From assembly GCA_016939335.1 (NCBI GenBank), contig JAFGHC010000039.1, positions 2,376-66,375 of the forward strand: a stretch of DNA of 64,000 nucleotides, given 5' to 3'. Made by a program: the position numbers and the translations under genes. The notes under the pieces are model-generated. The model saw nothing but the letters and a program-made list of their open reading frames with translations. It made no database searches and had not been told where the DNA came from. Source of the DNA: Candidatus Saganbacteria bacterium (lineage in GTDB: Bacteria; Margulisbacteria; WOR-1; O2-12-FULL-45-9; XYB2-FULL-48-7). Shown here in pieces: positions 25,062-64,000 of the stretch; within the stretch, counting starts at the first letter, position 1; every line of letters begins with the position of its first letter.

Positions 25062-25197
25062 ACAATCAAATAACAAACAACAAATTACAGACAATACCAA
25101 ATTGCCGAAATTCTAATGTTCAAAACGGCGCTGTTTATTCACTTTGATCATTGTGATTTAGAAATTGTTTGTTATTTGATGCTTGTTATTTGTTATT
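25062..25197. repeat. family-2 AT-rich MITE-like element, copy A
   Basis: Terminal inverted repeats CAAATAACAAACAA ... TTGTTTGTTATTTGATGCTTGTTATTTGTTATTT. An internal GTTTGTTATTTGATGCTTGT 20-mer and ATACCAAATT are identical to copy B at 41323-41455. Confidence 0.7.
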
Positions 25198-25217
25198 TAT
25201 GAGGAATGGAGGCATGA

Positions 25218-34560: not shown

Positions 34561-34680
34561 AATCCGAATATCGAAATTCGAAATACGAAACGAATTCGAA
34601 ATCCGAAACAGAGAAAACCGTTTTAGAAATTCGAATTTTCCCCGTTTGTTTCGAGATTCGATATTCGAATTTCGGATTTA
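34561..34680. repeat. family-1 palindromic repeat (long copy)
   Basis: AATCCGAATATCGAAATTCGAAATACGAAACGAATTCGAAATCCGAAACAGAG...TTCGAGATTCGATATTCGAATTTCGGATTT. Confidence 0.7.
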
Positions 34681-36152: not shown

Positions 36153-36245
36153 ATCAGAATATTGAATATCGAAACTCGAAATAATTGGGGCAAAATTCGA
36201 ATTTCGAATTCCCTTCGAATTTCGAGATTCGGTTTTCGAATTTAG
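36153..36245. repeat. family-1 palindromic repeat
   Basis: AATCAGAATATTGAATATCGAAACTCGAAATAATTGGGGCAAAATTCGAATTTCGAATTCCCTTCGAATTTCGAGATTCGGTTTTCGAATTT. Confidence 0.65.
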
Positions 36246-36255
36246 AAGGCATGAG

Positions 36256-38856: not shown

Positions 38857-38890
38857 AAATTCATTATAGCATGGGAAATCACCGCAAATT

Positions 38891-38944
38891 CCACACACTT
38901 TAGTGTGTGGTTTCAATCTTATTCGCTTTGGCCAGATTCTGGGG
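38891..38944. repeat. palindromic hairpin pair CCACACAC-TTTA-GTGTGTGG plus CCAGATTCTGGGG; inverted copy of the element at 62648-62693
   Basis: Perfect 8-bp stem with 4-nt loop. The 26-nt context (AATTCCACACACTTTAGTGTGTGGTTTC) matches the reverse complement of 62644-62670. Lies in the typA/greA divergent region. Confidence 0.6.
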
Positions 38945-39026
38945 GAAACTCCACAGCACTTGACATTTGTAACTGTTAACTTGCCGGCCCGTTCAAATTG
39001 CATCGTGATGAAACGCCCGGGAATGG

Positions 39027-39055
39027 TTAAGCTTCCCCATCTTATTTGATATAAT
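39027..39055 (+). promoter_or_regulatory. putative extended -10 promoter for greA (leaderless or near-leaderless transcript)
   Basis: TTGATATAAT (TGn-TATAAT) at 39046-39055. The greA ATG at 39062 is only 7 nt downstream, and there is no SD. Confidence 0.3.
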
Positions 39056-39061
39056 AACTCC

Positions 39062-39526
39062 ATGGCCGAACGGATGACCCAGGAGAACTACGACAAGATC
39101 GGGCAGAAGCTCGCCGCGCTCAAGAAGCGCCGCGCCGCCATCTCCAAGACGATCGGCGAGGCGCGCGAGCACGGCGACCTGCGCGAGAATTCCGCTTACC
39201 ACACCGCCAAGGACGAGCAGGGGCTCAACGAGATGCGGATCCGCGAGCTGGAGGCCAAGCTGGCCGGCGCCACGATCGTCGACAAGAGCGAACTGGCCGC
39301 CGCCGGCTGCGTCACGCTCGGTTCGACGGTGCGGATCAAGGCGCTCGACACCGGCCAGGAGTTCGAGTACGCCATCGTGGCCGAGGACGAGGCCGACGTC
39401 CTGGAGGACAAGATCTCGACCGCTTCGCCGATCGGCGGCGCGGTCGTCAACGAGCCGGTCGGCGCCGTCGTCGAGGCCGAACTGCCGCGCGGCAAGGTCA
39501 AGTTCAAGGTCCTCGAAATAAAATGA
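39062..39526 (+). CDS. greA: transcription elongation factor GreA
   Basis: MAERMTQENYDKIGQKLAALKKRRAAISKTIGEAREHGDLRENSAYHTAKDEQ: the GreA N-terminal coiled coil with conserved D and E; 154 aa. Confidence 0.85.
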   Translation: MAERMTQENYDKIGQKLAALKKRRAAISKTIGEAREHGDLRENSAYHTAKDEQGLNEMRIRELEAKLAGATIVDKSELAAAGCVTLGSTVRIKALDTGQEFEYAIVAEDEADVLEDKISTASPIGGAVVNEPVGAVVEAELPRGKVKFKVLEIK

Positions 39527-41305: not shown

Positions 41306-41322
41306 TACTATAGTATATAATA

Positions 41323-41455
41323 ATCAAATCACAAATAACAAACAATACCAAATTACCGGAATTCGAATGACTAAAACAGGCAACGTTTATTTCATTGGGT
41401 AATTGTGGTTTGGGATTTGTTTGTTATTTGATGCTTGTGATTTGTTATTTTGTTA
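41323..41455. repeat. family-2 AT-rich MITE-like element, copy B
   Basis: CACAAATAACAAACAATACCAAATTACCGGAATTCGAATG...GTTTGTTATTTGATGCTTGTGATTTGTTATTT; aligns with copy A at 25062-25197. Confidence 0.7.
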
Positions 41456-41465
41456 TACTGGCCCC

Positions 41466-50422: not shown

Positions 50423-51217
50423 ATGCTGATCTGGATAATCGCCAGCACGGTCGTTATCAGTCTTTTCTCCCTCGCCGGGGTGGCCGCCCTCGGCCTGAAG
50501 GAAAAGACGTTAAAAGAGCTGCTGCTCCTCCTGGTCGGTTTTTCCGCCGGCGCGCTGGCGGGGGGCGCTTTCCTTCATTTGCTGCCGGAGGCGCTTGAAG
50601 AGCTGCCGGCGGGACGGGCGTTCGTTTACGCCCTGCTCGGTTTCTCGCTTTTCTTCCTGATGGAGCGGCTCTTCTACTGGCGCCACTGCCACAAAGGGAA
50701 GTGCGACGTCCACGCCTTCACCTATCTCAACCTCTTCGGCGACGGCCTGCACAACTTTATCGACGGCCTGGTCATCGCCGCCAGCTTCCTCGGCGGCCTC
50801 CCGCTCGGGATCGCGACCAGCGTCGCGGTCGCCTCGCACGAGATCCCGCAGGAGCTGGGCGACTTCGGGGTCCTCGTCTACGGAGGTTTTCCCGTCGGCC
50901 GGGCGCTGTTTTTTAACCTGCTTTCGGCCCTGACGGCGGTCGCGGGCGGGGTCGCTGGCTTTTATCTCTCGTCGGCCGTGGCCGGCCTGGCCGTGGCGCT
51001 GCTGCCGTTCACCGCCGGCGGCTTTATCTACATCGCGGCTTCCGACCTGATCCCGGAGCTCCACAAGGAAAAGGACAACCGCAAGGCCAACCTGGCGTTC
51101 GTCCTTTTTCTCCTCGGGTTGCTTTTTATGTGGGGGATGACGTTTTTGGCCGGCCATGACCATGCCGGCGGTCACGCGGAAAATCATCCCGCTCTTAGCC
51201 GGCAGCACGCCCGGTAA
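50423..51217 (+). CDS. zupT: ZIP-family metal transporter
   Basis: HEIPQELGDFGVL signature and His-rich HCHKGKCDVH loop; eight predicted TM segments. Confidence 0.8.
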   Translation: MLIWIIASTVVISLFSLAGVAALGLKEKTLKELLLLLVGFSAGALAGGAFLHLLPEALEELPAGRAFVYALLGFSLFFLMERLFYWRHCHKGKCDVHAFTYLNLFGDGLHNFIDGLVIAASFLGGLPLGIATSVAVASHEIPQELGDFGVLVYGGFPVGRALFFNLLSALTAVAGGVAGFYLSSAVAGLAVALLPFTAGGFIYIAASDLIPELHKEKDNRKANLAFVLFLLGLLFMWGMTFLAGHDHAGGHAENHPALSRQHAR

Positions 51218-51294: not shown

Positions 51295-51540
51295 ATGGCT
51301 AAAAAAATGATCGTTTCGCTGGCGGAGATGAGGGTGGGGGAGGGCGGCCTGGTGGCCGGGTTCGCCGCCGGCCGCGGGGCGGCCCATCGTTTCGTGGCGC
51401 TGGGGATCAGGGTGGGGCGGCCGATCACCAAAAAAAGCCGGGGGCTCTTCGGGGGGCCGGTGATCGTCCAGGCCGGCGGCACGCAGATCGGCCTGGGGCG
51501 CGGCATGGCCCGCAAGGTGATGGTCGAGGTGGAACGGTGA
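51295..51540 (+). CDS. feoA: ferrous iron transport protein A
   Basis: 81 aa; SLAEMRVGEGGLVAGF...GIRVGRPITK SH3-like FeoA pattern. Confidence 0.8.
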   Translation: MAKKMIVSLAEMRVGEGGLVAGFAAGRGAAHRFVALGIRVGRPITKKSRGLFGGPVIVQAGGTQIGLGRGMARKVMVEVER

Positions 51541-53270
51541 AAAAGATACTGCTGATGGGGAATCCCAACGTCGGCAAGAGCGCCTTCTTCTCCCGCCTGA
51601 CCGGCGTCGAGGTCATCACCTCCAATTACCCCGGCACGACCGTCGAGTACACCCGGGGCTACGCGCTGATCGCCGGCGAAAAATACGAGGTCCTTGATGT
51701 GCCGGGCACCTACACGCTGGAGCCGACCTGCAAGGCGGAAGAGATCGCCCGCGAGATGCTCAAGGAGGCCGTCAGCCGGATGGTCGGCGAAGCTGATATC
51801 GTCATCAATATCGTGGACGCCACCAATCTGGAGCGGAACCTTTACCTGACGCTGGAATTGCTGGAGCGGCCGCTGCCGGTGATCGTTGCCCTGAACCTGT
51901 GGGACGAAGCCAGGCACCACGGCATCGAGATCGACGTCGAAAAATTAAAGGAATGGCTGCGCGTCCCGGTGGTGCCGACCGTGGCGGTGACCGGCGAGGG
52001 TTTTATCGGCCTGAACACCGAGATCTACAAGGCTTACGCCCCCCGGGTGCGCCCCCATTCCGCCGAAGAGCGGTTGCTCGATGTCGGCAAATTGGTCAAG
52101 GACGTCCAAACGATCCATTACCGGCGCCACACGCTCCGGGACCGGCTGGAGGAGCTGACGGTCCACCAGCTGACCGGTCTGCCGATCGCGCTGCTGGTCA
52201 TGGTCGCCGCCTTTTTCGTCATCCGGCAGATCGGCGAGGGTTTGATCGGTTATCTGCTGGACCCCGCTTTCGAGAATTTTTACACGCCGCTGCTGATGAA
52301 ATTGAGCGGCTGGCTGGGCGGGGCCGGTTTTTGGCATGACTTGCTGGTGGGCCATCTAATCGCCAGTAAAGTTGATTACCTGCAATCGTTCGGGCTGTTA
52401 AGCACCGCCATCTACATCGAGATCGGGGCGGTACTGCCTTACATTATTGCCTTTTACCTTGTCCTGGGGATACTGGAAGATTCCGGTTATTTGCCCCGCC
52501 TGGCGGTGCTGATGGACAATCTCCTTCACCGGATCGGCCTGCACGGCTTTGCCATCGTGCCGACCCTCTTGGCTTTCGGCTGCAACGTGCCGGGGATCAT
52601 GGCGACCAGGATACTGGAGAGCCGGCGGGAGCGCTTTATCGCTGCCACGCTGATCTCGATCGGCGTTCCCTGCGCGGCGCTCCAGGCGATGATCATCGGC
52701 GTGCTGGGCAAGCATGGCGGCGGGCCGATCGCTATCGTTTACGCAGCGCTCTTCGGCTCCTGGTTCATTCTGGGATTTATCCTGAACCGGCTGCTTCCCG
52801 GTTTCAGCCCGGAGCTTTTGCTCGAGATCCCCCCTTATCGTCTGCCGCCGCTGCGGCTGCTGTTTAAAAAGCTTTGGTGGCGGGTCAAGGCCTTCCTCAA
52901 GGAGGCGCTGCCGATTGTGATGCTTGGCGTCCTGGCCGTGGACCTGCTGTATTTAGCCGGCGTCTTTAATTTACTGATAGGCTTGTTCGCTCCGGTGATG
53001 CGCGGCCTTTTAGGCTTGCCGAAAGAGGCGGTGACGGCGATCATTATCGGTTTCTTGAGAAAAGACGTGGCGGTCGGCCTGCTGCTGCCGCTCGGCCTGT
53101 CGGTCAAACAGCTGATCGTCGGCTGCGTGGTGCTCTCGATGTTCTTCCCCTGCGTGGCGACGTTCGTCGTCCTCTGCCGGGAGCTGGGCTGGCGCGACAT
53201 GCTCAAGTCGACGGCGATCATGATCGCGGCGGCGCTGGCGGCCGGCGGGCTCCTTAATCTGGTCCTCTAA
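51537..53270 (+). CDS. feoB: ferrous iron transport protein B
   Basis: G-domain MGNPNVGKSAFFSRLTG followed by a polytopic membrane domain; 577 aa; start overlaps the feoA stop. Confidence 0.9.
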   Translation: MKKILLMGNPNVGKSAFFSRLTGVEVITSNYPGTTVEYTRGYALIAGEKYEVLDVPGTYTLEPTCKAEEIAREMLKEAVSRMVGEADIVINIVDATNLERNLYLTLELLERPLPVIVALNLWDEARHHGIEIDVEKLKEWLRVPVVPTVAVTGEGFIGLNTEIYKAYAPRVRPHSAEERLLDVGKLVKDVQTIHYRRHTLRDRLEELTVHQLTGLPIALLVMVAAFFVIRQIGEGLIGYLLDPAFENFYTPLLMKLSGWLGGAGFWHDLLVGHLIASKVDYLQSFGLLSTAIYIEIGAVLPYIIAFYLVLGILEDSGYLPRLAVLMDNLLHRIGLHGFAIVPTLLAFGCNVPGIMATRILESRRERFIAATLISIGVPCAALQAMIIGVLGKHGGGPIAIVYAALFGSWFILGFILNRLLPGFSPELLLEIPPYRLPPLRLLFKKLWWRVKAFLKEALPIVMLGVLAVDLLYLAGVFNLLIGLFAPVMRGLLGLPKEAVTAIIIGFLRKDVAVGLLLPLGLSVKQLIVGCVVLSMFFPCVATFVVLCRELGWRDMLKSTAIMIAAALAAGGLLNLVL

Positions 53271-53274
53271 TCCG

Positions 53275-53679
53275 ATGAAGAAACACAGGCTGACGCCGAA
53301 CATGGAGAATTACCTGGAGACGGTGCTCGTCCTGGAGCGGGAGCATGGCCACGCCCACGTCAAGGATATCGCCCAAACGCTCGGGATCAAGATGCCGAGC
53401 GTGACCCAGGCGCTGGGCAAGCTGAAGAAAGCGAGCTTGGTCAACTACGGCCGCTACGGCGCCGTTACTTTAACCGCCCGGGGGAGGGCGATCGGCCGGC
53501 GGTTCATGAAAGACCATCGCGTCCTGGCCCGTTTTTTCCGCGGGGTCCTGGGGGTTGACCCGGCCGTGGCTGAAGAGGACGCCTGCCGGATCGAGCACGT
53601 GATCAGCCGCCGGACGCTGGACAAGCTGGAGAAGTTGAGCCGGCGGCTGGCCGGCGCTAAGCGGCGGAGTAAACGGTGA
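53275..53679 (+). CDS. DtxR/MntR-family metal-dependent transcriptional repressor
   Basis: MENYLETVLVLEREHGHAHVKDIAQTLGIKMPSVTQALGKLKKASLV HTH plus a metal-binding/dimerisation domain; 134 aa. Confidence 0.8.
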   Translation: MKKHRLTPNMENYLETVLVLEREHGHAHVKDIAQTLGIKMPSVTQALGKLKKASLVNYGRYGAVTLTARGRAIGRRFMKDHRVLARFFRGVLGVDPAVAEEDACRIEHVISRRTLDKLEKLSRRLAGAKRRSKR

Positions 53680-54217: not shown

Positions 54218-54340
54218 GGGAGTATTTTATCATGAGCATAAGCGCTTGACAAACGGAGCGGCCAGGCTGTATAATGTGCGTATGCACGTAACGGATCATC
54301 AGATTATCAGAGTATCAGAATATCAGGGGGAGGGGAGAAC

Positions 54341-54679
54341 ATGACGCCGCGGCAAAGGAAATGGCGTGTTTGCCAGCCGTTCGGCGGGGATGCGTTTTAC
54401 AAGCCGCGCGCCGTCCCTTTGTCCGCTCTGGAGATAATAAAGCTCGGCCATGACGAGGTCGAAGCGATGCGCCTGTGCGATTATGAAGAGCTGGAACAGG
54501 AAGCGGCGGCCCAAAAAATGAATATTTCCCGGGGGACGGTGCAGCGGCTGCTTTATTCCGGCAGGAAAAAGGTCGTCGAGGCGATCACGCGGGCCAGGGC
54601 CTTGCAGATCGAAGGCGGGGAGCACATTGTGCCGCCGGGTTTTGGCGGCCGGGGACGCGGTTGGTGTGGAAGGAGGTGA
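54341..54679 (+). CDS. DUF134 / UPF0251 family predicted DNA-binding protein
   Basis: LSALEIIKLGHDEVEAMRLCDYEELEQEAAAQKMNISRGTVQRLLYSGRKKV: a sigma-70 region-4-like HTH typical of DUF134. Confidence 0.65.
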   Translation: MTPRQRKWRVCQPFGGDAFYKPRAVPLSALEIIKLGHDEVEAMRLCDYEELEQEAAAQKMNISRGTVQRLLYSGRKKVVEAITRARALQIEGGEHIVPPGFGGRGRGWCGRR

Positions 54680-54940
54680 ATGATCATGCCGGGAGGAGAT
54701 GGAACAGGACCGTGGGGCCAGGGGCCGGGGACCGGTTGGGGCCGGGGCGGCTGCGTGCCCTGGGGCCGCGGCGCCCGCGTTGGCCGGGGTCGCGGCGGTT
54801 GGTGGGGCAGGGCGTTCGGAGCGTTTAGGGATGTTTTTGCCCCGTACAATCCCGCTGACGAAGAGGCGGAACTCAAAGCGGAGCGCGACGCGGTCAACGC
54901 GCGGTTAGCGGAGATCGAAAAGGGGAAAAAAGTAAAATGA
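54680..54940 (+). CDS. DUF5320-type glycine-rich small protein
   Basis: MPGGDGTGPWGQGPGTGWGRGGC...GRGRGGWWG followed by a short helical tail EEAELKAERDAVNARLAEIEK. Immediately follows DUF134. Confidence 0.6.
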   Translation: MIMPGGDGTGPWGQGPGTGWGRGGCVPWGRGARVGRGRGGWWGRAFGAFRDVFAPYNPADEEAELKAERDAVNARLAEIEKGKKVK

Positions 54941-55332
54941 AAATAGCCATATCTACCGACAACGGGCAGGTATCGGCGCATTTTGGGCGGTGCCCCGAGT
55001 TCACGGTCGTCACGATCGAGAACGGCACGGTCGTCGATCAGGAGACCGTGCCCAATCCGGGGCACCAGCCCGGGTTCCTGCCGAAGTTCCTGCGCCAGCG
55101 AGGAGTGCAAATGATCGTGGCGGGGGGGATGGGGGCGCGCGCCCAAATGCTCTTTGCCGAAGAGCAGATCGAGACCGTGGTCGGCGTTACCGGCAGTGTC
55201 ATGGAAGCGGTCAAAGGGCTGCAGGCCGGAACTTTGCGGAGCGGAACATCGCTCTGCAGTCCGGGAGCCGGGCGAGGCTACGGTTTAAATAAAACGGAGT
55301 GCGATCATCCGCACCATGAGGAGGAAAAATGA
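54937..55332 (+). CDS. NifX/NifB-type dinitrogenase FeMo-cofactor-binding domain protein
   Basis: MKIAISTDNGQVSAHFGRCPEFTVVTIENGTV ... MIVAGGMGARAQ: the Nitro_FeMo-Co (PF02579) pattern. Confidence 0.7.
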   Translation: MKIAISTDNGQVSAHFGRCPEFTVVTIENGTVVDQETVPNPGHQPGFLPKFLRQRGVQMIVAGGMGARAQMLFAEEQIETVVGVTGSVMEAVKGLQAGTLRSGTSLCSPGAGRGYGLNKTECDHPHHEEEK

Positions 55333-55703
55333 AGATCTGTGTGACCGCCGCGGCCGGCTCACTTGACGCGGCTATCGACCCGCGCTTCGGACGCTGCGCT
55401 TTTTTTATCATCATCGACCCGGCCACGCTCGAATTTAAGGCGTTGCCCAATCCTAATCTGGAATCTTCCGGAGGGGCCGGGATCCAGTCGGCCCAGCTGG
55501 TGGCTAACGAAGGGGTTGAGGCGGTGGTCACGGGGAATGTCGGGCCGAACGCCCATCAGACCTTATCCGCCCTGGGGATCAAGGTCCTGATCGGAGCGTC
55601 GGGGACCGTCAGCCAGGCGGTCGCCGACTACCGGGCCGGCAGACTTCAGGAAGCGGCCGGTCCGTCGGTTAGCGGCCACTTTGGACAGGGAGGGGGGAAA
55701 TGA
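55329..55703 (+). CDS. second NifX/NifB-type FeMo-cofactor-binding domain protein
   Basis: MKICVTAAAGSLDAAIDPRFGRCAFFIIIDPATLEF ... AVVTGNVGPNAHQTLSALGIKV. Confidence 0.7.
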   Translation: MKICVTAAAGSLDAAIDPRFGRCAFFIIIDPATLEFKALPNPNLESSGGAGIQSAQLVANEGVEAVVTGNVGPNAHQTLSALGIKVLIGASGTVSQAVADYRAGRLQEAAGPSVSGHFGQGGGK

Positions 55704-56035
55704 GCGATTTACCGTCGGTCACAGGAGAGAATTTCCAGTCAGAAGTATTGCAAGGCCAGAAACCGGTCCTGGTCGATTTCTGGGCGCCCTGGTGCGTTCC
55801 CTGCAAGATGATCGGCCCGGTGCTGGAAAAGGCCGCCGCCAAGCTCGGCGACCGGCTCAGGGTGGTCAAACTGAACGTGGAAGAGGAGAAGGCGACGGCC
55901 GACAGCCACGGGGTGATGAGCATCCCTTCGCTGGTCATGTTTGCCGGGGGAAAGGAGGTCGGCCGGATCGCCGGGTTCATGGACGAGGCGCGCTTGAGCG
56001 CCGAGATCGCCGACCTCTTGGAAATGGCGGGATGA
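55700..56035 (+). CDS. thioredoxin (WCVPC variant)
   Basis: PVLVDFWAPWCVPCKMIGP active site; 111 aa. Confidence 0.8.
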   Translation: MSDLPSVTGENFQSEVLQGQKPVLVDFWAPWCVPCKMIGPVLEKAAAKLGDRLRVVKLNVEEEKATADSHGVMSIPSLVMFAGGKEVGRIAGFMDEARLSAEIADLLEMAG

Positions 56036-56355
56036 CGGCCCCGTCCTTTGCCGAGGTCGACCAGGCCCGCAAGGTTCTGGGCCTGGGAGATAAAGCGGAC
56101 CTGGCAGAAGTCAAGCGGGCGCAGCGGCGGCTGGTAAAGGAGTGGCACCCCGACAAACGCCGTAAGGCTGAGCAGGCGGAATGCCATGAAAAGATGAAAG
56201 AGATCAACCGGGCCTATAAGATCATTATGAAGTACATTGAGAACTACCGTTATGACTTCGTCGAAAGTAAAGTGAGCGAGGACGATCCCATCGCCCGCTG
56301 GAAAGCGCAATTCGGCGACGACCCGACCTGGGGAACGGGCAAAGGGTGGTCTTAG
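56031..56355 (+). CDS. J-domain (DnaJ-like) protein
   Basis: ATG overlapping the thioredoxin stop; LGLGDKADLAEVKRAQRRLVKEWHPDK carries the HPD motif. The track lists only a longer out-of-context ORF (55681-56355). Confidence 0.6.
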
Positions 56356-56356
56356 G

Positions 56357-57043
56357 ATGGCGCTGGAGTTCCGGGGAGCGATCGCCGGCGGTTATGAAGC
56401 CTGGTTCTCGACAGTAAGAGGTCGGTACGCCGACCGGCTGGAGAAAAAGGTCATTTCTGGTCTGGTCAAAATAAGGCCGGGCGAAAAGATTTTAGATGTC
56501 GGTTGCGGCACCGGCCATTTTTCCGCTTTTTTCCGGAAGATGGGCGGTCAAGTCACCGGGCTTGAGCCGTCGCCGGAGATGCTGGCCGAAGCAAGGCGTC
56601 TGTACGGTGAAAGAGGGATAAATTTCATTGCGGGGAACGCCGAACGGTTGCCCTTTGCCGACCGCTCTTTTGACCTGGTCACGCTGATCACGGTCCTGGA
56701 ACTGCTCGACGATCCAGGTCAAGCCTTAGCGGAGGCTTTTCGGGTCGGCAAGGGGAAGGTCTTTCTCGGTATTCTGAACCGGGACAGCATTATTAACCGG
56801 CAGAGGGCAAAAACGGGTAAAGGGATCTGGCGGCAGGTCCATTTTTATACTTTACGGGAGATCAGGGCACTGCTGGGGAAGGGGGCCAAGGTCGTCTGGC
56901 GCGGGGCCCTTCATTTGCCGCTGCCGGCGTCGGAGCGAAGCGCCGTCTGGCGCTATCCGCTCGAAAGCTTATTGTCGAACCTGAAAATGCTCGGCGGCGC
57001 TTTTATTGGGATGATGGCGGAAAGAAAAGATGGGAGGGAATGA
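56357..57043 (+). CDS. class I SAM-dependent methyltransferase (Methyltransf_11 type)
   Basis: ILDVGCGTGHFS motif I; 228 aa. Confidence 0.75.
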   Translation: MALEFRGAIAGGYEAWFSTVRGRYADRLEKKVISGLVKIRPGEKILDVGCGTGHFSAFFRKMGGQVTGLEPSPEMLAEARRLYGERGINFIAGNAERLPFADRSFDLVTLITVLELLDDPGQALAEAFRVGKGKVFLGILNRDSIINRQRAKTGKGIWRQVHFYTLREIRALLGKGAKVVWRGALHLPLPASERSAVWRYPLESLLSNLKMLGGAFIGMMAERKDGRE

Positions 57044-57044
57044 A

Positions 57045-57218
57045 ATGGCTTATATTATTGATCAGGAAAAGTGTATCGGTTGCGGGGCCTGCGCTCCTCA
57101 ATGCGCGGCGGAGGCGATCGCCCCGGATGAGGATAAATACAGGATAGACAGGGAAAAATGCACGGAATGCGGCGCCTGCGTCGATTCCTGCCCGGTCGGA
57201 GCGATCAGCAAGCCATGA
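57045..57218 (+). CDS. 2x[4Fe-4S] ferredoxin
   Basis: CIGCGACAPQC and CTECGACVDSC motifs. ATG at 57045 preceded by GGGAGGGAA. Confidence 0.8.
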   Translation: MAYIIDQEKCIGCGACAPQCAAEAIAPDEDKYRIDREKCTECGACVDSCPVGAISKP

Positions 57219-57556
57219 ACGCCAAGCGCAAGATCGGGATCATCAGGTGTCAGCAAACTGAGGATATGTGCCCGGGGAATACCGGTTTGAAAGCGGCGGC
57301 CGAGGGCAAACTGGCTTTTGCCGAAATTGGCCCGTGCGAGATCGTCGGTTTTGTTACCTGCGGCGGCTGCCCGGGCAAAAGGGCGGTTACCAGGGCGAAA
57401 ATGCTGGTCGAGCGGGGAACGGACACGATCGTCATCGCGTCGTGCATCAGCAAGGGGCATCCGGTCGGAGTTCCCTGCCCGCATTTTGCGCAAATGAAGG
57501 AAAGTATTGCCAAAAAAGTCGGTCCGGAGATAAAAATAATCGATTGGACGCATTGA
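57215..57556 (+). CDS. CGGC-domain protein
   Basis: MNAKRKIGIIRCQQTEDMCPG ... VGFVTCGGCPGKR ... IASCISKG conserved-cysteine pattern of PF08821. ATGA overlap with the ferredoxin stop. Confidence 0.65.
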   Translation: MNAKRKIGIIRCQQTEDMCPGNTGLKAAAEGKLAFAEIGPCEIVGFVTCGGCPGKRAVTRAKMLVERGTDTIVIASCISKGHPVGVPCPHFAQMKESIAKKVGPEIKIIDWTH

Positions 57557-57996
57557 AATTGATAATTAAGTCAAGGCCGATAGGCATAATTCATTCCCCT
57601 TTCAAGACCAAGGAAGAAGCGCCGATCCAGCCGTTCAAGTCGGACGCTGAAGGGCGGGTGGAAGTCTATGAAAAATATGCCGCGGGGCTGGAAGGGATCG
57701 AGCAGTTCTCCCACGTGATCCTGGCCTATTATTTCCACCAGATCAAGGACGAACGGCTCAAGGTAAAACCGTATCTTGACGACAACGAATACGGGGTGTA
57801 TGCCACGCGGCATCCCCACCGGCCGAACCACATCGGTATTTCAACGGTCAGGCTGCTCGGGAGGAAAGGGAAGATCCTGCGGGTCAAGAATATTGACATT
57901 GTTGACGGCAGTCCGTTGCTGGATATCAAGCCGTACGTTTCGGCCTTTGACCGCCGGGATAACGTCAAAGACGGCTGGCTGGAGGGGAAGATATGA
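57556..57996 (+). CDS. tsaA: tRNA (adenine37-N6)-methyltransferase TsaA/TrmO (YaeB family)
   Basis: TTG start; PIGIIHSPFKTKEEAPIQP ... HPHRPNHIGISTVRLL ... LDIKPY. Confidence 0.7.
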   Translation, partial: KLIIKSRPIGIIHSPFKTKEEAPIQPFKSDAEGRVEVYEKYAAGLEGIEQFSHVILAYYFHQIKDERLKVKPYLDDNEYGVYATRHPHRPNHIGISTVRLLGRKGKILRVKNIDIVDGSPLLDIKPYVSAFDRRDNVKDGWLEGKI

Positions 57997-58718
57997 ACAA
58001 AGGCCCGGGGGGGCTGGAGATCAAAGGTTTTATCGAAACCTCTTTCCTCGATTGGGACGGAAAGATCGTTTCGACTTTATACGTGGCCGGGTGTAATTTC
58101 CGCTGTCCCTTTTGTCATAACGCCGGACTCATTGAGAGGCCGCACGAGTATGAAACGATCCCTCTGGAGCGCATAGAGAATTACCTGCTGGCCCATAAGG
58201 ATTTTATAGACGGGATCTGCCTGACCGGCGGCGAACCCTGTTTGCATAAGGGCCGGGGGCTTTTTGAGTTCATGAAGCGGGTTAAGGACAAGGGGTTTGA
58301 AATAAAATTAGACAGCAATGGGACGGACCCGGAATGCTTGAAGACGGCGCTCGACCAAAAACTGGCCGATTATTTCGCCATGGATATCAAGGGGCCGCTG
58401 GACGAAAGGTACGACGGCCTTTCCGGGGTAAAGACGGACCTGGCCGGGATCAAAGAGAGCGTTAAAACCATCAGAGAAAGCGGCGTCCCACATGAGTTCC
58501 GCACGACGGTGCTGCCGACCCTGCTGGGAGAGGAAGAGATCGCGGCGATCGCCGGTTACCTGGCCGGCGCGGAGAAGTTCGTGCTTCAGCAGTTCGCGCC
58601 GGACCATGCCTGGGACGAGAAGCTGCGTTCGGTCAAGCCGTATGAAAAGCCGGAGCTTGAGCGTCTGGCCCGGGTTGCCAGAACGCACGTGCCCAATGTC
58701 CTGATCCGGGGGGTATGA
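57993..58718 (+). CDS. NrdG-like radical SAM activating enzyme
   Basis: SFLDWDGKIVSTLYVAGCNFRCPFCHN matches the NrdG/PFL-AE N-terminal cluster motif; 241 aa. No glycyl-radical enzyme gene is present in the window. Confidence 0.65.
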   Translation: MNKGPGGLEIKGFIETSFLDWDGKIVSTLYVAGCNFRCPFCHNAGLIERPHEYETIPLERIENYLLAHKDFIDGICLTGGEPCLHKGRGLFEFMKRVKDKGFEIKLDSNGTDPECLKTALDQKLADYFAMDIKGPLDERYDGLSGVKTDLAGIKESVKTIRESGVPHEFRTTVLPTLLGEEEIAAIAGYLAGAEKFVLQQFAPDHAWDEKLRSVKPYEKPELERLARVARTHVPNVLIRGV

Positions 58719-58753
58719 TGACGGCAGCCAATTAAAGCAAGGGAGGAAAAAGG

Positions 58754-60103
58754 ATGAAAGAGAAAGAAGCCGATGTCATTGTTGTCGGGGGCGGCCCGGC
58801 GGGGGTGATCAGCGCGGTGACGGCGCGCCGGTATTATCCCGACAAGAAAATATTGGTCATTAAGAGCGTCGGCCGGGGCGTGATCCCCTGCGGCATACCT
58901 TACATGTTCGCCACCCTGGAAAAACCCGAGGACAACGCCATGAGCGATCTTCCCCTGGAAAAGAGCAATGTGGAGTTGCTGGTGGACGAGGTGACCGCGG
59001 TCAACAGGCAAGGGAAGACCGTCAGCACCAAAAGCGGCAGGGAGCTGGCCTACGACAAGCTGGTCCTGGCCCACGGCTCCGAACCGGTCGTCCCGCCGGT
59101 CAAAGGGATAGAGAAGAAAGGCGTTTATCCGATTTACAAAGACCTGGATTATCTGAAGGCGATGAAGGAGGAGATAAGGAAAGCCAAAAGCGTCCTGATC
59201 ATCGGCGGCGGCTTTATCGGCGTCGAATTTGCGGATGAATTGGCCGGCCTTAAGGGGCTAAAGGTTTACCTGGTCGAGCTTTTGCCGGGCCTTCTGGCGA
59301 ACTCGTTTGACGCGGAATTCGGGCAAATGGCGCTGGCCAAGCTTAAGGCCAAAGGGGTGGAGGTCATCTGCGGGGAAAAAGTGGAGGAGCTTACCGGGGG
59401 GGATCAAGTGACCGGCGTCCTCTTGTCCGACGGGACCAGGCGGCCGGTGGAGGCCGTGGTCCTGGGTATCGGCGCGCGGCCGAACGTGAAACTCGCCGAA
59501 GCGGCCGGTATCGATCTGGGCCGTGGTCAGGGCATTTGGACGGACGAGTATATGCGCACTTCGGACCCGGATATTTTCGCCGTCGGCGACTGCGCGGGGA
59601 AAAGGGATTTCTTTACCCGCAAAAGTTTGCCGGTCATGCTGGCGTCCACCGCCACGGCGGAAGCCAGGATCGCCGGGGCCAACCTGTTCCAGCTGAAAGT
59701 GGTGCGTGAGAACAAAGGGACGATAGCGATCTATTCGACTTATGTGAACGGGCTGGTGCTCGGTTCGGCCGGATTAAATGAGGCGACCGCGGGGAAAGAG
59801 GGCTTTGATTACATAGCAGGCGAGGCGGAGGCGCCGGACAAACATCCGGGCGGGATCCCGGGGATGGTCAAGATGAGGGTTAAACTCGTTTTTTCCAGGC
59901 AATCGGAGATACTTTTGGGCGGCCAGGTGTCCGGCGGGATGTCGGCCGGTGAAGTTATAAATATAATCGGGATGGCGCTGCAAAAGCGGGTATCCGCCAC
60001 GGAACTCGAGACCCTGCAGATAGCGACCCATCCCTGTTTGACCGCCGCGCCGACGATGTACCCGCTGGTCCTGGCGGCGCAGGACGCGGCGGGCAAGATC
60101 TGA
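58754..60103 (+). CDS. FAD-dependent pyridine nucleotide-disulfide oxidoreductase (NADH oxidase / CoA-disulfide reductase-like)
   Basis: VIVVGGGPAGV FAD motif, single redox Cys in VIPCGIPY, second Rossmann LIIGGGFIGVE; 449 aa. Confidence 0.75.
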   Translation: MKEKEADVIVVGGGPAGVISAVTARRYYPDKKILVIKSVGRGVIPCGIPYMFATLEKPEDNAMSDLPLEKSNVELLVDEVTAVNRQGKTVSTKSGRELAYDKLVLAHGSEPVVPPVKGIEKKGVYPIYKDLDYLKAMKEEIRKAKSVLIIGGGFIGVEFADELAGLKGLKVYLVELLPGLLANSFDAEFGQMALAKLKAKGVEVICGEKVEELTGGDQVTGVLLSDGTRRPVEAVVLGIGARPNVKLAEAAGIDLGRGQGIWTDEYMRTSDPDIFAVGDCAGKRDFFTRKSLPVMLASTATAEARIAGANLFQLKVVRENKGTIAIYSTYVNGLVLGSAGLNEATAGKEGFDYIAGEAEAPDKHPGGIPGMVKMRVKLVFSRQSEILLGGQVSGGMSAGEVINIIGMALQKRVSATELETLQIATHPCLTAAPTMYPLVLAAQDAAGKI

Positions 60104-60870
60104 TGAAATATATTTACGGCCCGGTGCCGTCGTGGCGTCTGGGGCGGTCGCTGGGGGTCGACCTGGTTTCCGGGGATAAAACCTGCTCTTTCGATTGCGT
60201 CTATTGCCAGCTGGGCAAAACGGTCAGGCACTATATCAAGCGCCAGCTTTTTGTCCCGATCGCGGAGATTGTTGAAGAGCTGGAAAGCGTCCCCCGTTTG
60301 AACATCGATTACATCACTTTATCAGGGACCGGAGAGCCGACGCTGGCGCTGAACCTGGGTGACGCCATTGAGAAGATCAAGGGGCATTTCACCAAGCCGG
60401 TGGCGGTTCTGACCAATTCTTCGCTGTTGCACGATTCGCAGGTGAGAAAGGAACTGGGGGCCGCAGACCTGGTCGTAGCCAAGCTGGACGCGCCAAACGA
60501 AGAAATTTTTCATCGTGTCAGCCGGCCATCCGGGGGGATAACCTTTCACATGATCGTGGATGGGATCAAGCGCTTCAATCAGGAATATCCCGGCAAGCTC
60601 GCTTTGCAGATGATGTTCGTGCCGCAAAACAAGGAACACGCGGCGGCCATGGCCCGGCTGGCCAAGGAGATCGGTCCGGTTGAGGTCCAGCTCAATACCC
60701 CCCTGCGGCCCAGCCCGGTCAAACCGCTGACGGTTGAAGAGCTGGCCGAAGTCAAAAAAATATTCCTGGCCGCCGGGCTGGAAAGAGTCTATTCCGTTTA
60801 CGATGTCGAGCGCCCGGAAACGCGGCCGCTCGACGAGAGCGAAACGAGGCGCCGGAGGCCGGAAGCTTGA
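60103..60870 (+). CDS. radical SAM protein (COG0731-like)
   Basis: YGPVPSWRLGRSLGVDLVSGDKTCSFDCVYCQLG: CX3CX2C 30 residues from the N-terminus; 255 aa. Confidence 0.65.
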   Translation: MKYIYGPVPSWRLGRSLGVDLVSGDKTCSFDCVYCQLGKTVRHYIKRQLFVPIAEIVEELESVPRLNIDYITLSGTGEPTLALNLGDAIEKIKGHFTKPVAVLTNSSLLHDSQVRKELGAADLVVAKLDAPNEEIFHRVSRPSGGITFHMIVDGIKRFNQEYPGKLALQMMFVPQNKEHAAAMARLAKEIGPVEVQLNTPLRPSPVKPLTVEELAEVKKIFLAAGLERVYSVYDVERPETRPLDESETRRRRPEA

Positions 60871-62249
60871 TCATCAATGATAAACAAATCGAGTCCTTAT
60901 TGGCCGGAGCAGCCAAATCCGGTCCATCATTAGTCGCTGATATCTTAGCCAAGGCCCGGGAGACTAAAGGGCTGACTCCGGCCGAAACCGCGGTTCTTTT
61001 GCAGTGCGAAGATAAAGGCTTGATCCAGCAGATACTCCAGGCCGCTAAGCATGTGAAAGAAGAAATATATGGCAAGCGGCTGGTCCTTTTTGCCCCGCTT
61101 TACGTGACGAACGAGTGTATTAACAATTGCCTTTATTGCGGTTTTCGCAAGGACAATACCAGTTTAACAAGGAAAACCCTCTCGCTGGACGAACTGGCGG
61201 AAGAAGTTACTATCCTTGAAGATATGGGGCACAAAAGAATCCTGATGGTTTTTGGGGAGCATCCCCGGCATTCGAACATCGATTTCATTGAAAAATCAAT
61301 TGCAAGGGCCTATGCCACCAAGTCAAAAAAGGGAGAAATGCGGCGGATAAATGTGAACCTGGCTCCGCTTTCCCTGGAAGATTTTAAGCGGCTGAAAGCG
61401 GCCAAGATCGGTACCTATCAGGCTTTTCAGGAGACCTACCACCGGGAAACTTATAAATACCTTCATCCTTCAGGCAAAAAAGCCGATTACGACTGGCGGG
61501 TGACCGCTTTTGACCGGGCCCAGCAGGCCGGGATCGATGATATCGGCGCCGGAGTTTTATTTGGCCTGTACGATTATAAATTCGAGGTCCTGGCCCTGCA
61601 GTACCATTCTATGCATCTCGAAAAGGAATATGGGTCCGGCCCGCACACCATTTCCGTCCCACGCCTCGAGCCGGCCTTAAACGCCCCGGCGGCGAATTGC
61701 CCGCCCCATCCCGTTTCTGACGAGGAGTTTAAAAAACTGGTGGCGATCATCCGCCTGGCCGTTCCTTACACCGGCATGATCCTTTCCACCAGGGAAGCGC
61801 CCGCCTTAAGGGATGAGCTGGTCGGCCTGGGCATTTCCCAGCTCTCCGCCGGCTCGCGAACCTATCCCGGCGGGTACAAGGACCAGCTGGCCCATGTCGA
61901 AGTCGAAGAGCAGTTCCAGATCGAAGATACACGGCCGCTCGATCAGGTTATTTATGACCTGTGCAAGATCGGCTATATTCCCAGCTTTTGCACGGCTTGT
62001 TACCGGTTGGGCCGGACCGGGGAAAATTTCATGGGGTTTGCCAAAACCGGCTTTATTCGCAACTTTTGCACCCCCAACGCTTTGCTGACATTTAAAGAAT
62101 ACTTGCTCGACTACGCTTTGCCGGCGACCCGGGAGCTGGGAGAGCGGGTCTTTAAAGAGCACCTGGACAAGTTGCCTGAAAATATCCGCGAAAAAACCTT
62201 GGCCAAGTGCCGGGAACTGGAGGCGGGAGAAAGGGACAGGTATTTCTAG
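60867..62249 (+). CDS. hydG: HydG-like radical SAM enzyme ([FeFe]-hydrogenase H-cluster maturase family; ThiH-related)
   Basis: N-terminal CINNCLYC radical-SAM cluster. C-terminal CTAC-(22 aa)-C (CX2CX22C), which distinguishes HydG from ThiH. 460 aa. Confidence 0.6.
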   Translation: MIINDKQIESLLAGAAKSGPSLVADILAKARETKGLTPAETAVLLQCEDKGLIQQILQAAKHVKEEIYGKRLVLFAPLYVTNECINNCLYCGFRKDNTSLTRKTLSLDELAEEVTILEDMGHKRILMVFGEHPRHSNIDFIEKSIARAYATKSKKGEMRRINVNLAPLSLEDFKRLKAAKIGTYQAFQETYHRETYKYLHPSGKKADYDWRVTAFDRAQQAGIDDIGAGVLFGLYDYKFEVLALQYHSMHLEKEYGSGPHTISVPRLEPALNAPAANCPPHPVSDEEFKKLVAIIRLAVPYTGMILSTREAPALRDELVGLGISQLSAGSRTYPGGYKDQLAHVEVEEQFQIEDTRPLDQVIYDLCKIGYIPSFCTACYRLGRTGENFMGFAKTGFIRNFCTPNALLTFKEYLLDYALPATRELGERVFKEHLDKLPENIREKTLAKCRELEAGERDRYF

Positions 62250-62250
62250 T

Positions 62251-62568
62251 ATGGATAAGATCAAACATAAAATAATGGTCATGAGCAATAAAGGGGGCGT
62301 CGGTAAAAGCACCGTGTCCGTCAACCTGGCCTTTGGCTTGAGCGAGCAGGGCAAAAAAGTCGGGCTCCTCGACGCCGATCTGCACGGGCCGAGCCTGGCG
62401 AAAATGAGCGGCTCACAGGGCAATCTGCTCTCCGCCCGGGAGGGGAGGATCGCGCCCTTGGAAATGGGCGGGAACATGAAAATTGTCAGTTTAGCTTTAT
62501 TGTTCGGCCGGCAAGACGAGCCCATTATCTGGCGCGGCCCGCTAAAAATGAAAGCGATCAAACAATGA
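62251..62568 (+). pseudogene. Mrp/ApbC/NBP35-family ATPase, truncated after 105 codons
   Basis: MVMSNKGGVGKSTVSVNLAFGL P-loop and IIWRGPLKMKAIKQ match the Mrp family. Reading frame terminates at TGA 62566. The following about 190 bp is a hairpin-rich element, not coding. Confidence 0.55.
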
Positions 62569-62570
62569 AA

Positions 62571-62760
62571 AGATATCCCCGCCGCTTGCGGCGCGGGTAC
62601 CTTATGGTGGCCGAAGGGGTAAGGGGCAATAAAGAAAGGGTTTGGAACCACACACTAAAGTGTGTGGAATATTCCCCAGACTTTAGTCTGGGGTTACAGC
62701 CAAAAAACAGGAGAAGAAACGTGAAAGCTAAAGATACCCCACCGCTTGCGGTGGGGAGTT
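62571..62760. repeat. hairpin-rich element with two terminal CCCC(A/G)CCGCTTGCGG(T/C)GGGG hairpins flanking two internal palindromes (H2, H3)
   Basis: H1 62577-62597 imperfect. H2 CCACACAC-TAAA-GTGTGTGG 62648-62667. H3 CCCCAGAC-TTTA-GTCTGGGG 62674-62693. H4 CCCCACCGC-TTGC-GGTGGGG 62737-62756. H2 plus flank is an inverted copy of 38891-38910. Confidence 0.6.
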
Positions 62761-63081
62761 AGGTCATTTAGCAAGGGGCAGGGGAATTTCGAGGCCTTAT
62801 CGGATGAGGAGCGGCCGATCTTTTTTATGTTCAAGGTCAAATGCCCGGTCATCGGCAAAGATGTCAAAGGGGAAATGGGCGAAGCGGTCCTAAAAGCCCA
62901 TGCTTACCGTGACTAAGGCGGGGAGCGCGGTCCCGCTGGCGAAGAATGCGGCCAAAGCGCCGACGGCCGAGCTGCCGTACCCGGGCAAAATCTTCGGCCC
63001 GGTCGTTTCGGTCAACGCTTGCCGTCGCTTCGAGCGGGCCGAAGGCCGTTGCCGGGCGGTTCATAAAACGGAGGGAAAAAG

Positions 63082-63936
63082 ATGATCATCGCGGTCGCTT
63101 CGGGGAAAGGCGGGACCGGCAAGACGCTGGTCGCGACCTCGCTGGCCCTGTCCCTCGGCCAGAACGTCCAGCTGCTCGATTGCGACGTGGAGGAGCCGAA
63201 CGCAGCCATTTTTATCAAACCAAAGATCGAACAGAGTATGACGGCTTCCGTTCCGGTCCCGACGGTCGATGAAAGCAAGTGCGACTATTGCGGTAAATGC
63301 GCCGAAGTTTGTGAATACCACGCCATCGTGGTCGCGAAGAATAAAGTCTTGATCTTTCCCGAGCTTTGCCATAGTTGCGGCGCGTGCACGCTGCTTTGTC
63401 CGCGGCAGGCGATAACCGAGCGGGAACGGGTTATCGGCCGGATCGACATTGGTCATAAAGAGGGGCTCAGGTTCGTCCAGGGGTGCCTTAATGTCGGCGA
63501 AGCGATATCGCCGCCGCTGATCAGGCGGGTTAAAGAGTTGATCGATCCCGGGCGTACGGTGATCATCGATTCGCCGCCGGGAACATCATGTCCGGTCATT
63601 GCCGCGGTTAAAGGATGCGATTTTTGCCTGTTAGTGACCGAGCCGACCCCATTCGGCTTGAATGACCTGGTTTTGGCGGTGGAGACGGTCCGCAAGCTTG
63701 GGATCCCGTTCGGCGTGATCATTAACCGCGCCGACCTGGGAGATAATAAGACGGAAGAGTACTGCGCGGCGGAAAATATCCCGGTGCTGTTAAGGATCCC
63801 GTTCAAAAAAGAGATCGCGGAGGCGTATGCAAAAGGGACCGCGGCCGTTGAGATAATGCCGGAATGCGGGCCAAAGTTCAGGGGAGCGTTCGAGGCGGCC
63901 GGCAGGATCGTTGAGCGGCGAGGCGGGAAAACGTGA
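63082..63936 (+). CDS. MinD/ParA-superfamily P-loop ATPase with an inserted 2x[4Fe-4S] ferredoxin domain (CooC-like)
   Basis: MIIAVASGKGGTGKT P-loop, two CxxCxxCxxxC ferredoxin motifs (CDYCGKCAEVCE, CHSCGACTLLCP), then DSPPGTSCPVIAAV. RBS AACGGAGGGAAAAAG. Confidence 0.7.
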   Translation: MIIAVASGKGGTGKTLVATSLALSLGQNVQLLDCDVEEPNAAIFIKPKIEQSMTASVPVPTVDESKCDYCGKCAEVCEYHAIVVAKNKVLIFPELCHSCGACTLLCPRQAITERERVIGRIDIGHKEGLRFVQGCLNVGEAISPPLIRRVKELIDPGRTVIIDSPPGTSCPVIAAVKGCDFCLLVTEPTPFGLNDLVLAVETVRKLGIPFGVIINRADLGDNKTEEYCAAENIPVLLRIPFKKEIAEAYAKGTAAVEIMPECGPKFRGAFEAAGRIVERRGGKT

Positions 63937-64000
63937 AAGCTAAAAGAGCGGTCGAACATTTTATCGGGAGAGGGGGGCGGGGGCGGCTTAATTGCGCGCA

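Follow-up and report, generated by a model that had tools for sequence, protein, structure and literature searches.

What is a long, tightly packed run of metal-cluster genes for in Candidatus Saganbacteria? We asked this of a 64,000-nt stretch of contig JAFGHC010000039.1 (the window), in which the original prediction had picked out an island of 17 co-directional genes at 54341-63936 and had concluded that no function had been described for the system as a whole. We find that the core of the island corresponds to a system already studied biochemically, the orange protein (ORP) complex of Desulfovibrio. Our preferred reading, to which we give a probability of roughly 0.55, is that the operon encodes an ORP-type machine that handles metal-sulfur clusters when the redox potential is low, along with enzymes that consume such clusters or support their handling. 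Gene identities come from Pfam and NCBIfam profile scans of translated open reading frames (ORFs), and related loci, numbered with the prefix L, were read as 20-kb slices.

The ORP complex of D. vulgaris provides the template for comparison. Its Orp3 and Orp4 are paralogues with two [4Fe-4S] ferredoxin motifs each, Orp5 is a homologue of a [2Fe-2S] protein, Orp8 is ORP itself and binds a Mo-Cu-S cluster, and Orp9 is MrpORP, which passes Fe-S clusters to Orp3/4/8 in vitro (PMC6345978). Several of these components have counterparts in the island. The second of two NifX-like (Nitro_FeMo-Co) proteins (g04, 55329-55703, PF02579 81 bits) finds its best solved-structure match in the D. gigas ORP, 2WFB (E 1.3e-20, residues 2-113 of 124 in the query aligned), identifying it as the ORP/Orp8 homologue. 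The first (g03, 54937-55332, PF02579 75 bits, with 1T3V/1O13 and 2YX6 as relatives in the PDB) matches positions 265-357 of the NCBIfam MrpORP model at 100.8 bits, and the Mrp/NBP35 gene near the 3' end (g15) matches positions 1-105 of the 365 in the same model at 135 bits. At the distal end lies a MinD/ParA-type P-loop ATPase with an inserted 2x[4Fe-4S] ferredoxin domain (g17, 63082-63936; PF01656, PF10609, Fer4), and a second MinD-Fer4 ATPase (g19) follows just beyond the window; the CbiA/ParA plus 2xFer4 arrangement of this paralogous pair is that of Orp3/Orp4, a likeness drawn from architecture alone. Both systems are restricted to anaerobes, and the two-divergent-operon layout of the Desulfovibrio complex also occurs in two relatives of the island, where Mrp and a radical S-adenosylmethionine (SAM) gene diverge from a MinD-MinD-NifX-NifX run (L104, L106).

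The correspondence is incomplete. MrpORP is a two-domain protein in Desulfovibrio, whereas in the island its domains are separate genes, g03 and Mrp, whose scores of 101 and 135 bits fall well below the MrpORP cut-off of 450, and Mrp is a pseudogene. In Desulfovibrio the orp operons are controlled by sigma-54, OrpR and IHF; expression through sigma-54 and OrpR occurs only at low redox potential, and OrpR is restricted to Deltaproteobacteria (PMC8359166). The island instead has a sigma-70 promoter and a DUF134 gene with a predicted palindromic operator. In the alignment, g04 has an FGRC cysteine that the D. gigas ORP lacks. The island also adds DUF5320, thioredoxin, a J-domain protein, a methyltransferase, a ferredoxin, a CGGC protein, a TrmO-like protein, two further radical-SAM enzymes, a flavoprotein like CoA-disulfide reductase (CoADR) and HydG. 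For Orp5, a C_GCAxxG_C_C protein (g18) and the CGGC protein (g09) are candidate counterparts. We therefore file the island as a variant that probably works like the ORP system and not as a strict member of it: the ORP homologue and the Orp3/4 architecture are present, and the two-domain MrpORP and sigma-54/OrpR control are missing.

Control of the island appears to be simple and local. A sigma-70-type promoter on the forward strand (TTGACA-18 nt-TATAAT, 54246-54275) matches the consensus at 12 of 12 positions and lies 65 nt upstream of the DUF134 start codon. A 16-bp palindrome, ATGTGCGTATGCACGT, at 54274-54289 shares the final 2 nt of the -10 box, overlaps the probable start of transcription and is the only match to this palindrome in the window. 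When the upstream regions of the window, L002, L090 and L088 are aligned, the same -35 and -10 boxes are followed immediately by the palindrome, giving the predicted operator consensus ATG(T/G)GCATATGC(A/C)CAT; the TTGACA -35 box and a TATAAT-like -10 box also occupy the same position in L092 and L093. The palindrome reads ATGTGCATATGCACAT in L002 and L090 and ATGGGCATATGCCCAT in L088, where a symmetric double change (GGGC..GCCC) preserves it. The exact consensus occurs once each in six loci (L002/L083/L165/L166, L088, L090), always upstream of DUF134, and at no other place in the 1.97 Mb of loci searched. Near-matches occupy the same place in L092, L093, L137 and L138, whose DUF134 proteins are 43-48% identical to that of the window.

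DUF134 is the predicted regulator acting at this site. Its gene (g01, 54341-54679) is the first behind the palindrome in every relative examined, at 43-100% protein identity, and encodes a helix-turn-helix protein (PF02001 68.7 bits, with matches to sigma-70 region 4-like helix-turn-helix domains). Because a helix-turn-helix protein is the first gene product behind a conserved palindrome at the -10/start site, we infer that DUF134 is an autorepressor that would bind the palindrome as a dimer. Between the palindrome and the ribosome-binding site, the 5' leader holds a tandem repeat with an 8-nt period, GATTATCA x4.1 (54294-54326, forward strand), which is not conserved in L002 or L090.

The island behaves as a single compact unit. 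Its genes lie on the forward strand, adjacent ones sharing 1-4 nt or separated by at most 2 nt, except for 35 nt before g12 and a damaged stretch of 513 nt before g17. The 12/12 promoter, the overlapping start and stop codons, and forward-strand terminator-like sites no more numerous than chance predicts are most simply read as one transcription unit. The single-strand run and the recurrence of its gene order in other genomes place the clustering far beyond chance. The original description of a co-directional unit rich in metal-cluster-handling proteins thus stands, as do its coordinates and the 14 gene names it gave, which Pfam and NCBIfam bear out. Its count of 17 needs qualification: the run with short junctions is real, and two of the 17 are remnants (g15 and g16), leaving 15 intact genes. 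A methyltransferase (g07) and a TrmO-like protein (g10) had been left unnamed.

Between the regulator and the radical-SAM genes lies a set of further genes. DUF5320 (g02, 54680-54940, PF17253 53.3 bits), glycine-rich at its N-terminus and ending in a short helical part, precedes the two NifX-like genes. These are followed by a thioredoxin with a WCVPC motif (g05, 55700-56035, TIGR01068 113 bits against a cut-off of 96.8), a small J-domain protein containing HPD (g06, 56032-56355, PF00226 44.7 bits) and a class I SAM-dependent methyltransferase (g07, 56357-57043, PF08241 90 bits), which passes no NCBIfam model and is kept in L002, L090 and L089. Next come a 57-aa 2x[4Fe-4S] ferredoxin (g08, 57045-57218, FdxA_fam 67.6 bits against a cut-off of 65), the CGGC-domain protein (g09, 57215-57556, PF08821 106.6 bits) and a single-domain TrmO/TsaA-like protein (g10, 57559-57996, TIGR00104 141 bits against a cut-off of 93). 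A second assembly of the same sample, Logan contig L082, confirmed the call of g06 and supplied that of g08. The operon continues past the window end: g18 (PF09719 32 bits) starts at 63933 on the forward strand and runs off the window, and g19 is seen after it in L001, an independent Logan contig that is identical to 62732-64000 and reaches 818 nt further. All of the island genes are on the forward strand.

Metal-uptake genes adjoin the island in each of the four arrangements seen. Upstream of it in the window, outside the operon and on the same strand, Pfam identifies ZIP (50423-51217), FeoA (51295-51540), FeoB (51537-53270) and a DtxR-type iron-dependent repressor (53275-53679). FeoAB lies upstream in L002/L165, FeoAB-DtxR downstream in L167, and CbiM-PDGLE-ZIP upstream in L090. 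The GC content at third codon positions (GC3) of the island genes, 62-81%, is lower than that of the adjacent ZIP/Feo/DtxR genes (82-88%), with strong positive GC skew in most of them, so that island and flanks may have different histories. The local order has also shifted: TypA and GreA are adjacent in the window (37051-39526), with FeoAB and the island 12 kb further on, while in L002 (whose 3010-3471 is GreA-like) and L163 TypA and GreA flank FeoAB immediately upstream of the position of the island. The stretch has been rearranged.

The same genes travel together in other genomes, as the original prediction of a recurrent neighbourhood had proposed. The complete WOR-1 genome RIFOXYB2_FULL_45_9 (L002, also L083; L165 and L166 are near-identical copies) has the gene order of the window at 64-83% amino-acid identity, with g03 the exception at 32%; its g17 counterpart is 76% identical. 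It lacks the ferredoxin, TrmO-like and GCAxxG genes, keeps an intact Mrp, and continues downstream with DUF2099, NifU_N (IscU-like), rubrerythrin-like, metallo-beta-lactamase (MBL)-fold, MJ1433-like and YibE/F genes. L090 has an otherwise similar island without HydG, Mrp and thioredoxin. For a wider view, a metagenome scan was anchored on the compact radical-SAM protein g13, and all ORFs of the 80 loci returned were clustered; 75 of them hold a g13-family ORF, and many of the contigs are short. Near these g13 relatives, P-loop ATPases (Mrp and MinD-Fer4 clustered together) occur at 24 of 75 loci, DUF134 and MBL-fold proteins at 14 each, NifX-like proteins at 13, NrdG2-like proteins and DUF5320 at 11 each, the methyltransferase at 9 and the TrmO-like protein at 5. 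One locus reads MinD-MinD-NifX-NifX-Mrp-g13 (L087). In L128 and L132 the order is MinD-TrmO-MinD-g13, the TrmO-like gene standing between two MinD-Fer4 genes, and in L133 and L155 it lies alongside both.

This recurrence bears on whether the island is a functional system at all. It could instead be a mosaic supraoperon of unrelated anaerobic housekeeping genes in a small genome, with g11 activating NrdD, g10 acting as the TrmO tRNA methyltransferase, thioredoxin, ferredoxin and J-protein serving as general factors, and nothing shared among them except co-expression. Each of g11, g10, g05 and g08 does pass a curated NCBIfam housekeeping model, gene content differs between relatives, and the complete related genome (MEUD01000001) is only 1.67 Mb. 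We nevertheless consider a mosaic quite unlikely, as g11, g13 and the TrmO-like gene recur beside ORP-like genes on many independent contigs whose g13 relatives are 39-72% identical, the TrmO-like gene even between two MinD-Fer4 genes in some of them. In addition, nrdD did not turn up among the window ORFs scanned, and a dedicated regulator with its predicted operator precedes the whole set.

Two radical-SAM enzymes accompany HydG in the island. An activase-like protein of NrdG2 type (g11, 57993-58718) passes TIGR02495 at 189.1 bits against a cut-off of 131.15, and the compact, 255-aa COG0731-type protein g13 (60103-60870), with an N-terminal YGPVPSWRLGRSLG motif, passes no curated model. It falls below the cut-off of the TYW1 equivalog, the label that JGI gives to its relatives. 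Its predicted fold is closest to that of the pyruvate formate-lyase activating enzyme (PFL-AE), and like PFL-AE it is a small single-cluster radical-SAM protein. Activases of the NrdG/PFL-AE kind differ from both genes in their surroundings: no glycyl-radical enzyme or nrdD lies near g11 or g13, which travel with ORP-like genes, and NrdD was not identified among the window ORFs scanned, leaving g11 without the linkage to nrdD. The two are themselves linked, with at most one gene between them in L088, L089, L090 and L002, and g11 homologues adjoin g13 and NifX-like genes in the first three of these. In L090 (10001-10749) the g13 homologue changes frame at codon 26, tblastn giving separate pieces for 1-26 and 26-253, which is either a frameshift or a sequencing error. 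Between g11 and g13 stands a pyridine-nucleotide-disulfide oxidoreductase of the CoADR/NADH-oxidase type (g12, 58754-60103, PF07992 212 bits), which is a relative of CoADR at family level only, scoring 217.9 bits against a cut-off of 578.8 for TIGR03385 and 207.5 against 458 for NF007123.

The NifX-fold proteins do not make this a nitrogenase cofactor line. In the NifB, NifX/NafY, NifEN and NifH series we found no model or motif match here to NifB, NifE/N or NifH/D/K, and g03 and g04 are relatives of NifX at the level of the domain only. We considered g13 as a NifB-like enzyme and rejected it: the fold is similar, yet g13 has only its three invariant cysteines, without the auxiliary ligands that NifB uses for its extra clusters, and viperin and PFL-AE give scores just as good. 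The window was also searched with motifs, and a further 30 ORFs in 1-54217 with Pfam; neither revealed a nitrogenase or hydrogenase structural gene in the window, in agreement with the original prediction.

HydG (g14, 60867-62249) is a tyrosine lyase, and the synthon it makes is of the Fe-CO/CN type, Fe(CO)2(CN)-cysteine. The gene had been described as a HydG-like maturase, and it is a full HydG: it scores 534.5 bits against TIGR03955 (cut-off 312) and aligns with HydG of T. italicus (4WCX) over residues 3-460 at 557 bits. It carries the CX3CX2C motif of radical-SAM proteins and, at the C-terminus, CX2CX22C (the CTACYR...C segment), the latter separating it from ThiH, whose model it matches at 301 bits against a cut-off of 380. 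The HydE-HydF-HydG system that matures the H-cluster has this full-length HydG in common with the island and little else. HydE and HydF were found neither in the window or L001 nor in the six related HydG loci compared (L002/L165/L166, L163/L164, L167), and the HydA motifs TSCCPxW, MPCxxKxxE and ExMxCxxGCxxGG occur in no frame of the 64-kb window; HydA and aspartate ammonia-lyase were likewise not found in the window or related loci, and the neighbours are of ORP type instead. The original prediction had noted that hydA and hydEF immediately beyond the window would make this an ordinary hydrogenase maturation locus, and none lies there in L001 or in the relatives.

HydG loci elsewhere look different. 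When loci anchored on HydG from 80 other genomes were clustered, 70 had a clustered HydG ORF. Among these 70, a GTPase family read as HydF accompanies HydG at 25 and a family read as aspartate ammonia-lyase at 14, and two large families upstream of HydG (~614 and ~645 aa), provisionally taken without a Pfam check as the bifurcating-hydrogenase subunits HydB and HydA, occur at ~20 each. ORP-type genes appear among the clustered HydG loci only in the WOR-1 genome. In the literature, Saganbacteria are reported to lack [FeFe]-hydrogenase, with none in the key-gene table for eight representatives, and the complete genome RIFOXYB2_FULL_WOR1_45_9, which carries the syntenic island, appears in the trees of that survey (PMC6349859). 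We found no contrary later report in the literature searched.

Two explanations put HydG at the centre of the locus or outside it altogether. The first makes the island a dedicated organometallic-cofactor pathway, in which the HydG synthon is tailored by the other radical-SAM enzymes, NifX-fold and MinD-Fer4 proteins stand in for HydE/HydF, and the client is something other than [FeFe]-hydrogenase. In keeping with this, HydG is complete, its translation is coupled to that of g13 and Mrp, and a dozen related sequences are 66-100% identical to it; hydE, hydF and hydA are absent from the window, L001 and the 20-kb loci of relatives, while 25 of the other HydG loci have HydF; and the phylum is reported to lack [FeFe]-hydrogenase, the complete genome with the syntenic island included (PMC6349859). 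The combination of radical SAM, NifX-fold carrier and SIMIBI-class ATPase also parallels NifB-NifX-NifH/NifEN, families whose roles are established. The associations of HydG make such a pathway improbable. Its lineage in L163/L164 (80% identical) keeps it at the same site, flanked by FeoAB-GreA-RRM and GT4-GH130, with no ORP gene; L090 keeps the island without HydG; and none of the 79 other g13-anchored metagenome loci has it. HydG and the ORP module are therefore separable. HydG is also the compositional outlier of the island, lowest of all its genes in GC (52%), GC3 (63%) and GC skew (0.00), and g13 lacks auxiliary-cluster cysteines. Scattered hydE/F/G genes are moreover common in organisms that have HydA, and 64 kb of this genome are in view. 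We thus find no support for all 17 genes forming one dedicated pathway, given that HydG persists without ORP genes, L090 does without HydG, Mrp and thioredoxin, and the window has only a pseudogene of Mrp. In our preferred reading HydG was added to the island in particular lineages and does not belong to its core.

The second explanation takes HydG for an ordinary maturase working for a canonical [FeFe]-hydrogenase, HydA, whose gene, like hydE and hydF, would lie elsewhere in the genome; the rest of the island would be unrelated to it. A score well above the equivalog cut-off, two preserved cluster motifs, a composition unlike that of its neighbours and solitary hydG genes in several other lineages (L169, L171, L172) all fit, and the 64 kb visible leave room for distant partners. 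Set against these are the absence of any hyd partner from all six related loci and the sole survey found, which reports no [FeFe]-hydrogenase in any Saganbacteria representative, the genome with the syntenic island included, and which no later paper found in the literature searched contradicts. On balance we regard this explanation as unlikely, if a serious candidate for HydG; it is compatible with the ORP-type model for the rest of the island.

Two further HydG contexts deserve mention. In L163 (10001-12979) and L164 (6115-9093) an Rce1-like CPBP protease abuts HydG upstream, and a 523-aa class I/II aminotransferase and an Asp-Al_Ex transporter follow; a link to tyrosine or amino acids is possible for this HydG lineage. 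In L172 (7398-18557) a solitary HydG, 59% identical to that of the window, has HypA and a full set of group-4 membrane-bound [NiFe]-hydrogenase genes at a distance of 1.8 kb, a single observation that may be coincidence. The hydrogenases reported from Saganbacteria are all of the [NiFe] type, and where anaerobes obtain the CO for the Fe(CO)(CN)2 unit of such enzymes is not settled. It is a long shot that they use HydG for Fe-CO/CN units beyond [FeFe]-hydrogenase, with ORP-type carriers and MinD ATPases replacing HydE/HydF and either a new organometallic cofactor or the [NiFe] Fe(CO)(CN)2 unit as the client.

Mrp, encoded directly after HydG, has been damaged in this genome. The original prediction had its family right and overlooked the truncation: of ~266 codons only the first 105 remain (g15, 62251-62568; PF10609 positions 1-102 of 246), followed by a stop codon. 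Carriers of the Mrp/NBP35/ApbC family include bacterial ApbC, eukaryotic Nbp35-Cfd1 and Ind1. With them g15 shares the deviant Walker A segment and a match to the ApbC/MrpORP models over residues 1-105; it ends before the CXXC cluster-binding part, so it cannot serve as a carrier, and its intact orthologue in L002 is a complete single-domain member of 266 aa. The stop codon and the next 36 nt are confirmed by L082. Read-through or recoding of the stop was rejected, with no Mrp-like sequence in any of the three frames past 62568.

The sequence after the stop suggests how the gene was lost. A 56-codon ORF (g16, 62746-62916) is a remnant of a DUF89/ARMT1 phosphatase: it matches PF01937 at positions 267-311 of 311, with its residues 9-48 covering the last ~45 profile positions. 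In L084 an intact DUF89 gene (237 bits) comes directly after an intact Mrp. No Mrp lies between the radical-SAM and MinD-Fer4 genes of L090 or of L167, the closest relative, whose HydG is 90% identical. The simplest reading of the scar is that ~1.2 kb were deleted between the middle of Mrp and the late part of DUF89 and that Mrp is being lost from the lineage, and we take Mrp here to be a pseudogene. Both Logan contigs break within the joint, L082 ending at 62604 and L001 starting at 62732, so that its central 127 nt are supported by one assembly only. A chimeric assembly was judged less likely than a real deletion because L084 has both full genes, L167 lacks Mrp and the stop is confirmed in L082.

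The joint is filled by a cluster of four hairpins. These occupy 62569-62760, about 190 nt of GC-rich sequence with a fold z-score of -6.9, and read CCCCGCCGCTTGCGGCGCGGG, CCACACACTAAAGTGTGTGG, CCCCAGACTTTAGTCTGGGG and CCCCACCGCTTGCGGTGGGG. The second recurs exactly over 25 nt at 38888-38912, upstream of the TypA/BipA gene. Searched against Rfam, the whole window gave tRNAs only, and a permissive search of 62400-63150 gave no family for the hairpins. They look like repeats of the repetitive extragenic palindromic (REP) or bacterial interspersed mosaic element (BIME) type, and assemblies from short reads break at them.

Taken as an ORP-type operon, the island suggests the following order of events. 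Transcription would start from the strong sigma-70 promoter and be autorepressed by a DUF134 dimer sitting on the 16-bp palindrome at the -10/start site. The NifX-fold proteins g03 and g04 may hold preformed Fe-S or heterometal-S clusters, which the two MinD-Fer4 ATPases, and originally also Mrp/NBP35, would use ATP to receive and hand on. The direction of flow is proposed by analogy with MrpORP, which passes clusters to Orp3/4/8. Reduction of thiols and clusters, and a supply of electrons at low potential, could be the task of thioredoxin, the ferredoxin, the CGGC protein, the CoADR-like flavoprotein and the J-domain co-chaperone. Three radical-SAM enzymes, g11, g13 and HydG, would then be clients that depend on the clusters, or tailoring enzymes, co-expressed with the carriers. 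The operon is physically linked to genes for the import of iron, zinc or nickel.

Several observations weigh against the ORP-type reading. ORP itself has no settled cellular role: the literature calls the physiological role of the complex 'still unclear', mutants show a cell-morphology phenotype (PMC6345978, PMC8359166), and the ORP authors favour a link to cell division (PMC8359166). The likeness of the MinD-Fer4 ATPases g17 and g19 to DVU2103/DVU2104 is one of architecture. With Mrp reduced to a pseudogene (and absent from L090 and L167), this genome misses the one step that has biochemical support. The island encodes no cysteine desulfurase or obvious client enzyme. Conserved cysteines that might form a sensor-cluster site in DUF134 do not make up a universal set. 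Finally, ferredoxin, the TrmO-like protein, thioredoxin, HydG and the GCAxxG protein come and go among relatives, which would fit a looser assembly of functions.

ORP systems are widespread in anaerobes, and their cellular job is unsettled although one organism has been worked on for over ten years. The Saganbacteria locus and its relatives present an ORP-type system outside Deltaproteobacteria under a different and simple predicted control, DUF134 with a 16-bp palindrome; if true, this control gives DUF134 (UPF0251) its first concrete role. The recurrent partners, among them the compact radical SAM, the NrdG2-like and TrmO-like proteins, thiol-redox proteins and metal uptake, point to metal-cluster chemistry over cell division. 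A complete and conserved HydG in a phylum without reported [FeFe]-hydrogenase would, if that absence holds genome-wide, imply a second use of HydG chemistry. The ORP core is already published; the DUF134 palindrome, the recurrent g13, NrdG2 and TrmO-like partners and the HydG context appear new. We did not find the operator, the extended partner set or the HydG context in the literature searched, the coverage of which was incomplete, and with the same coverage nothing useful turned up on DUF134/DUF5320, orphan HydG or Orp5/GCAxxG.

The remainder of the window holds repeats and duplications of its own. Tandem repeats rich in AT, with units of 7 nt (8 nt in the island leader), occupy many intergenic regions of this 60% GC genome, often as inverted pairs. 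Their units vary by site and include TTCGAAT, AAAGTCA, TTTGTTA, TTTTGAT and, in the leader, GATTATCA; the sites are 946-978, 3826-3910, 16619-16647, 22745-22864, 23656-23686, 25061-25198, 32576-32606, 33521-33610, 34560-34668, 36196-36247, 41319-41456 and 54294-54326. An intergenic element of ~125 nt is present in two copies that are 79-81% identical (25074-25198 and 41325-41450) and end in TTTGTTA-type heptamers; it could be a shared promoter/leader or a small RNA. Two tRNA genes at 612-764 form a 78-nt tandem duplicate (76% identical), with a third, divergent tRNA at 419-491. At 19358-21209, segments of 48-65 nt are repeated every ~900-930 nt, and 20290-21171 has no Pfam match; the spacing suggests a small tandem array of paralogous genes.

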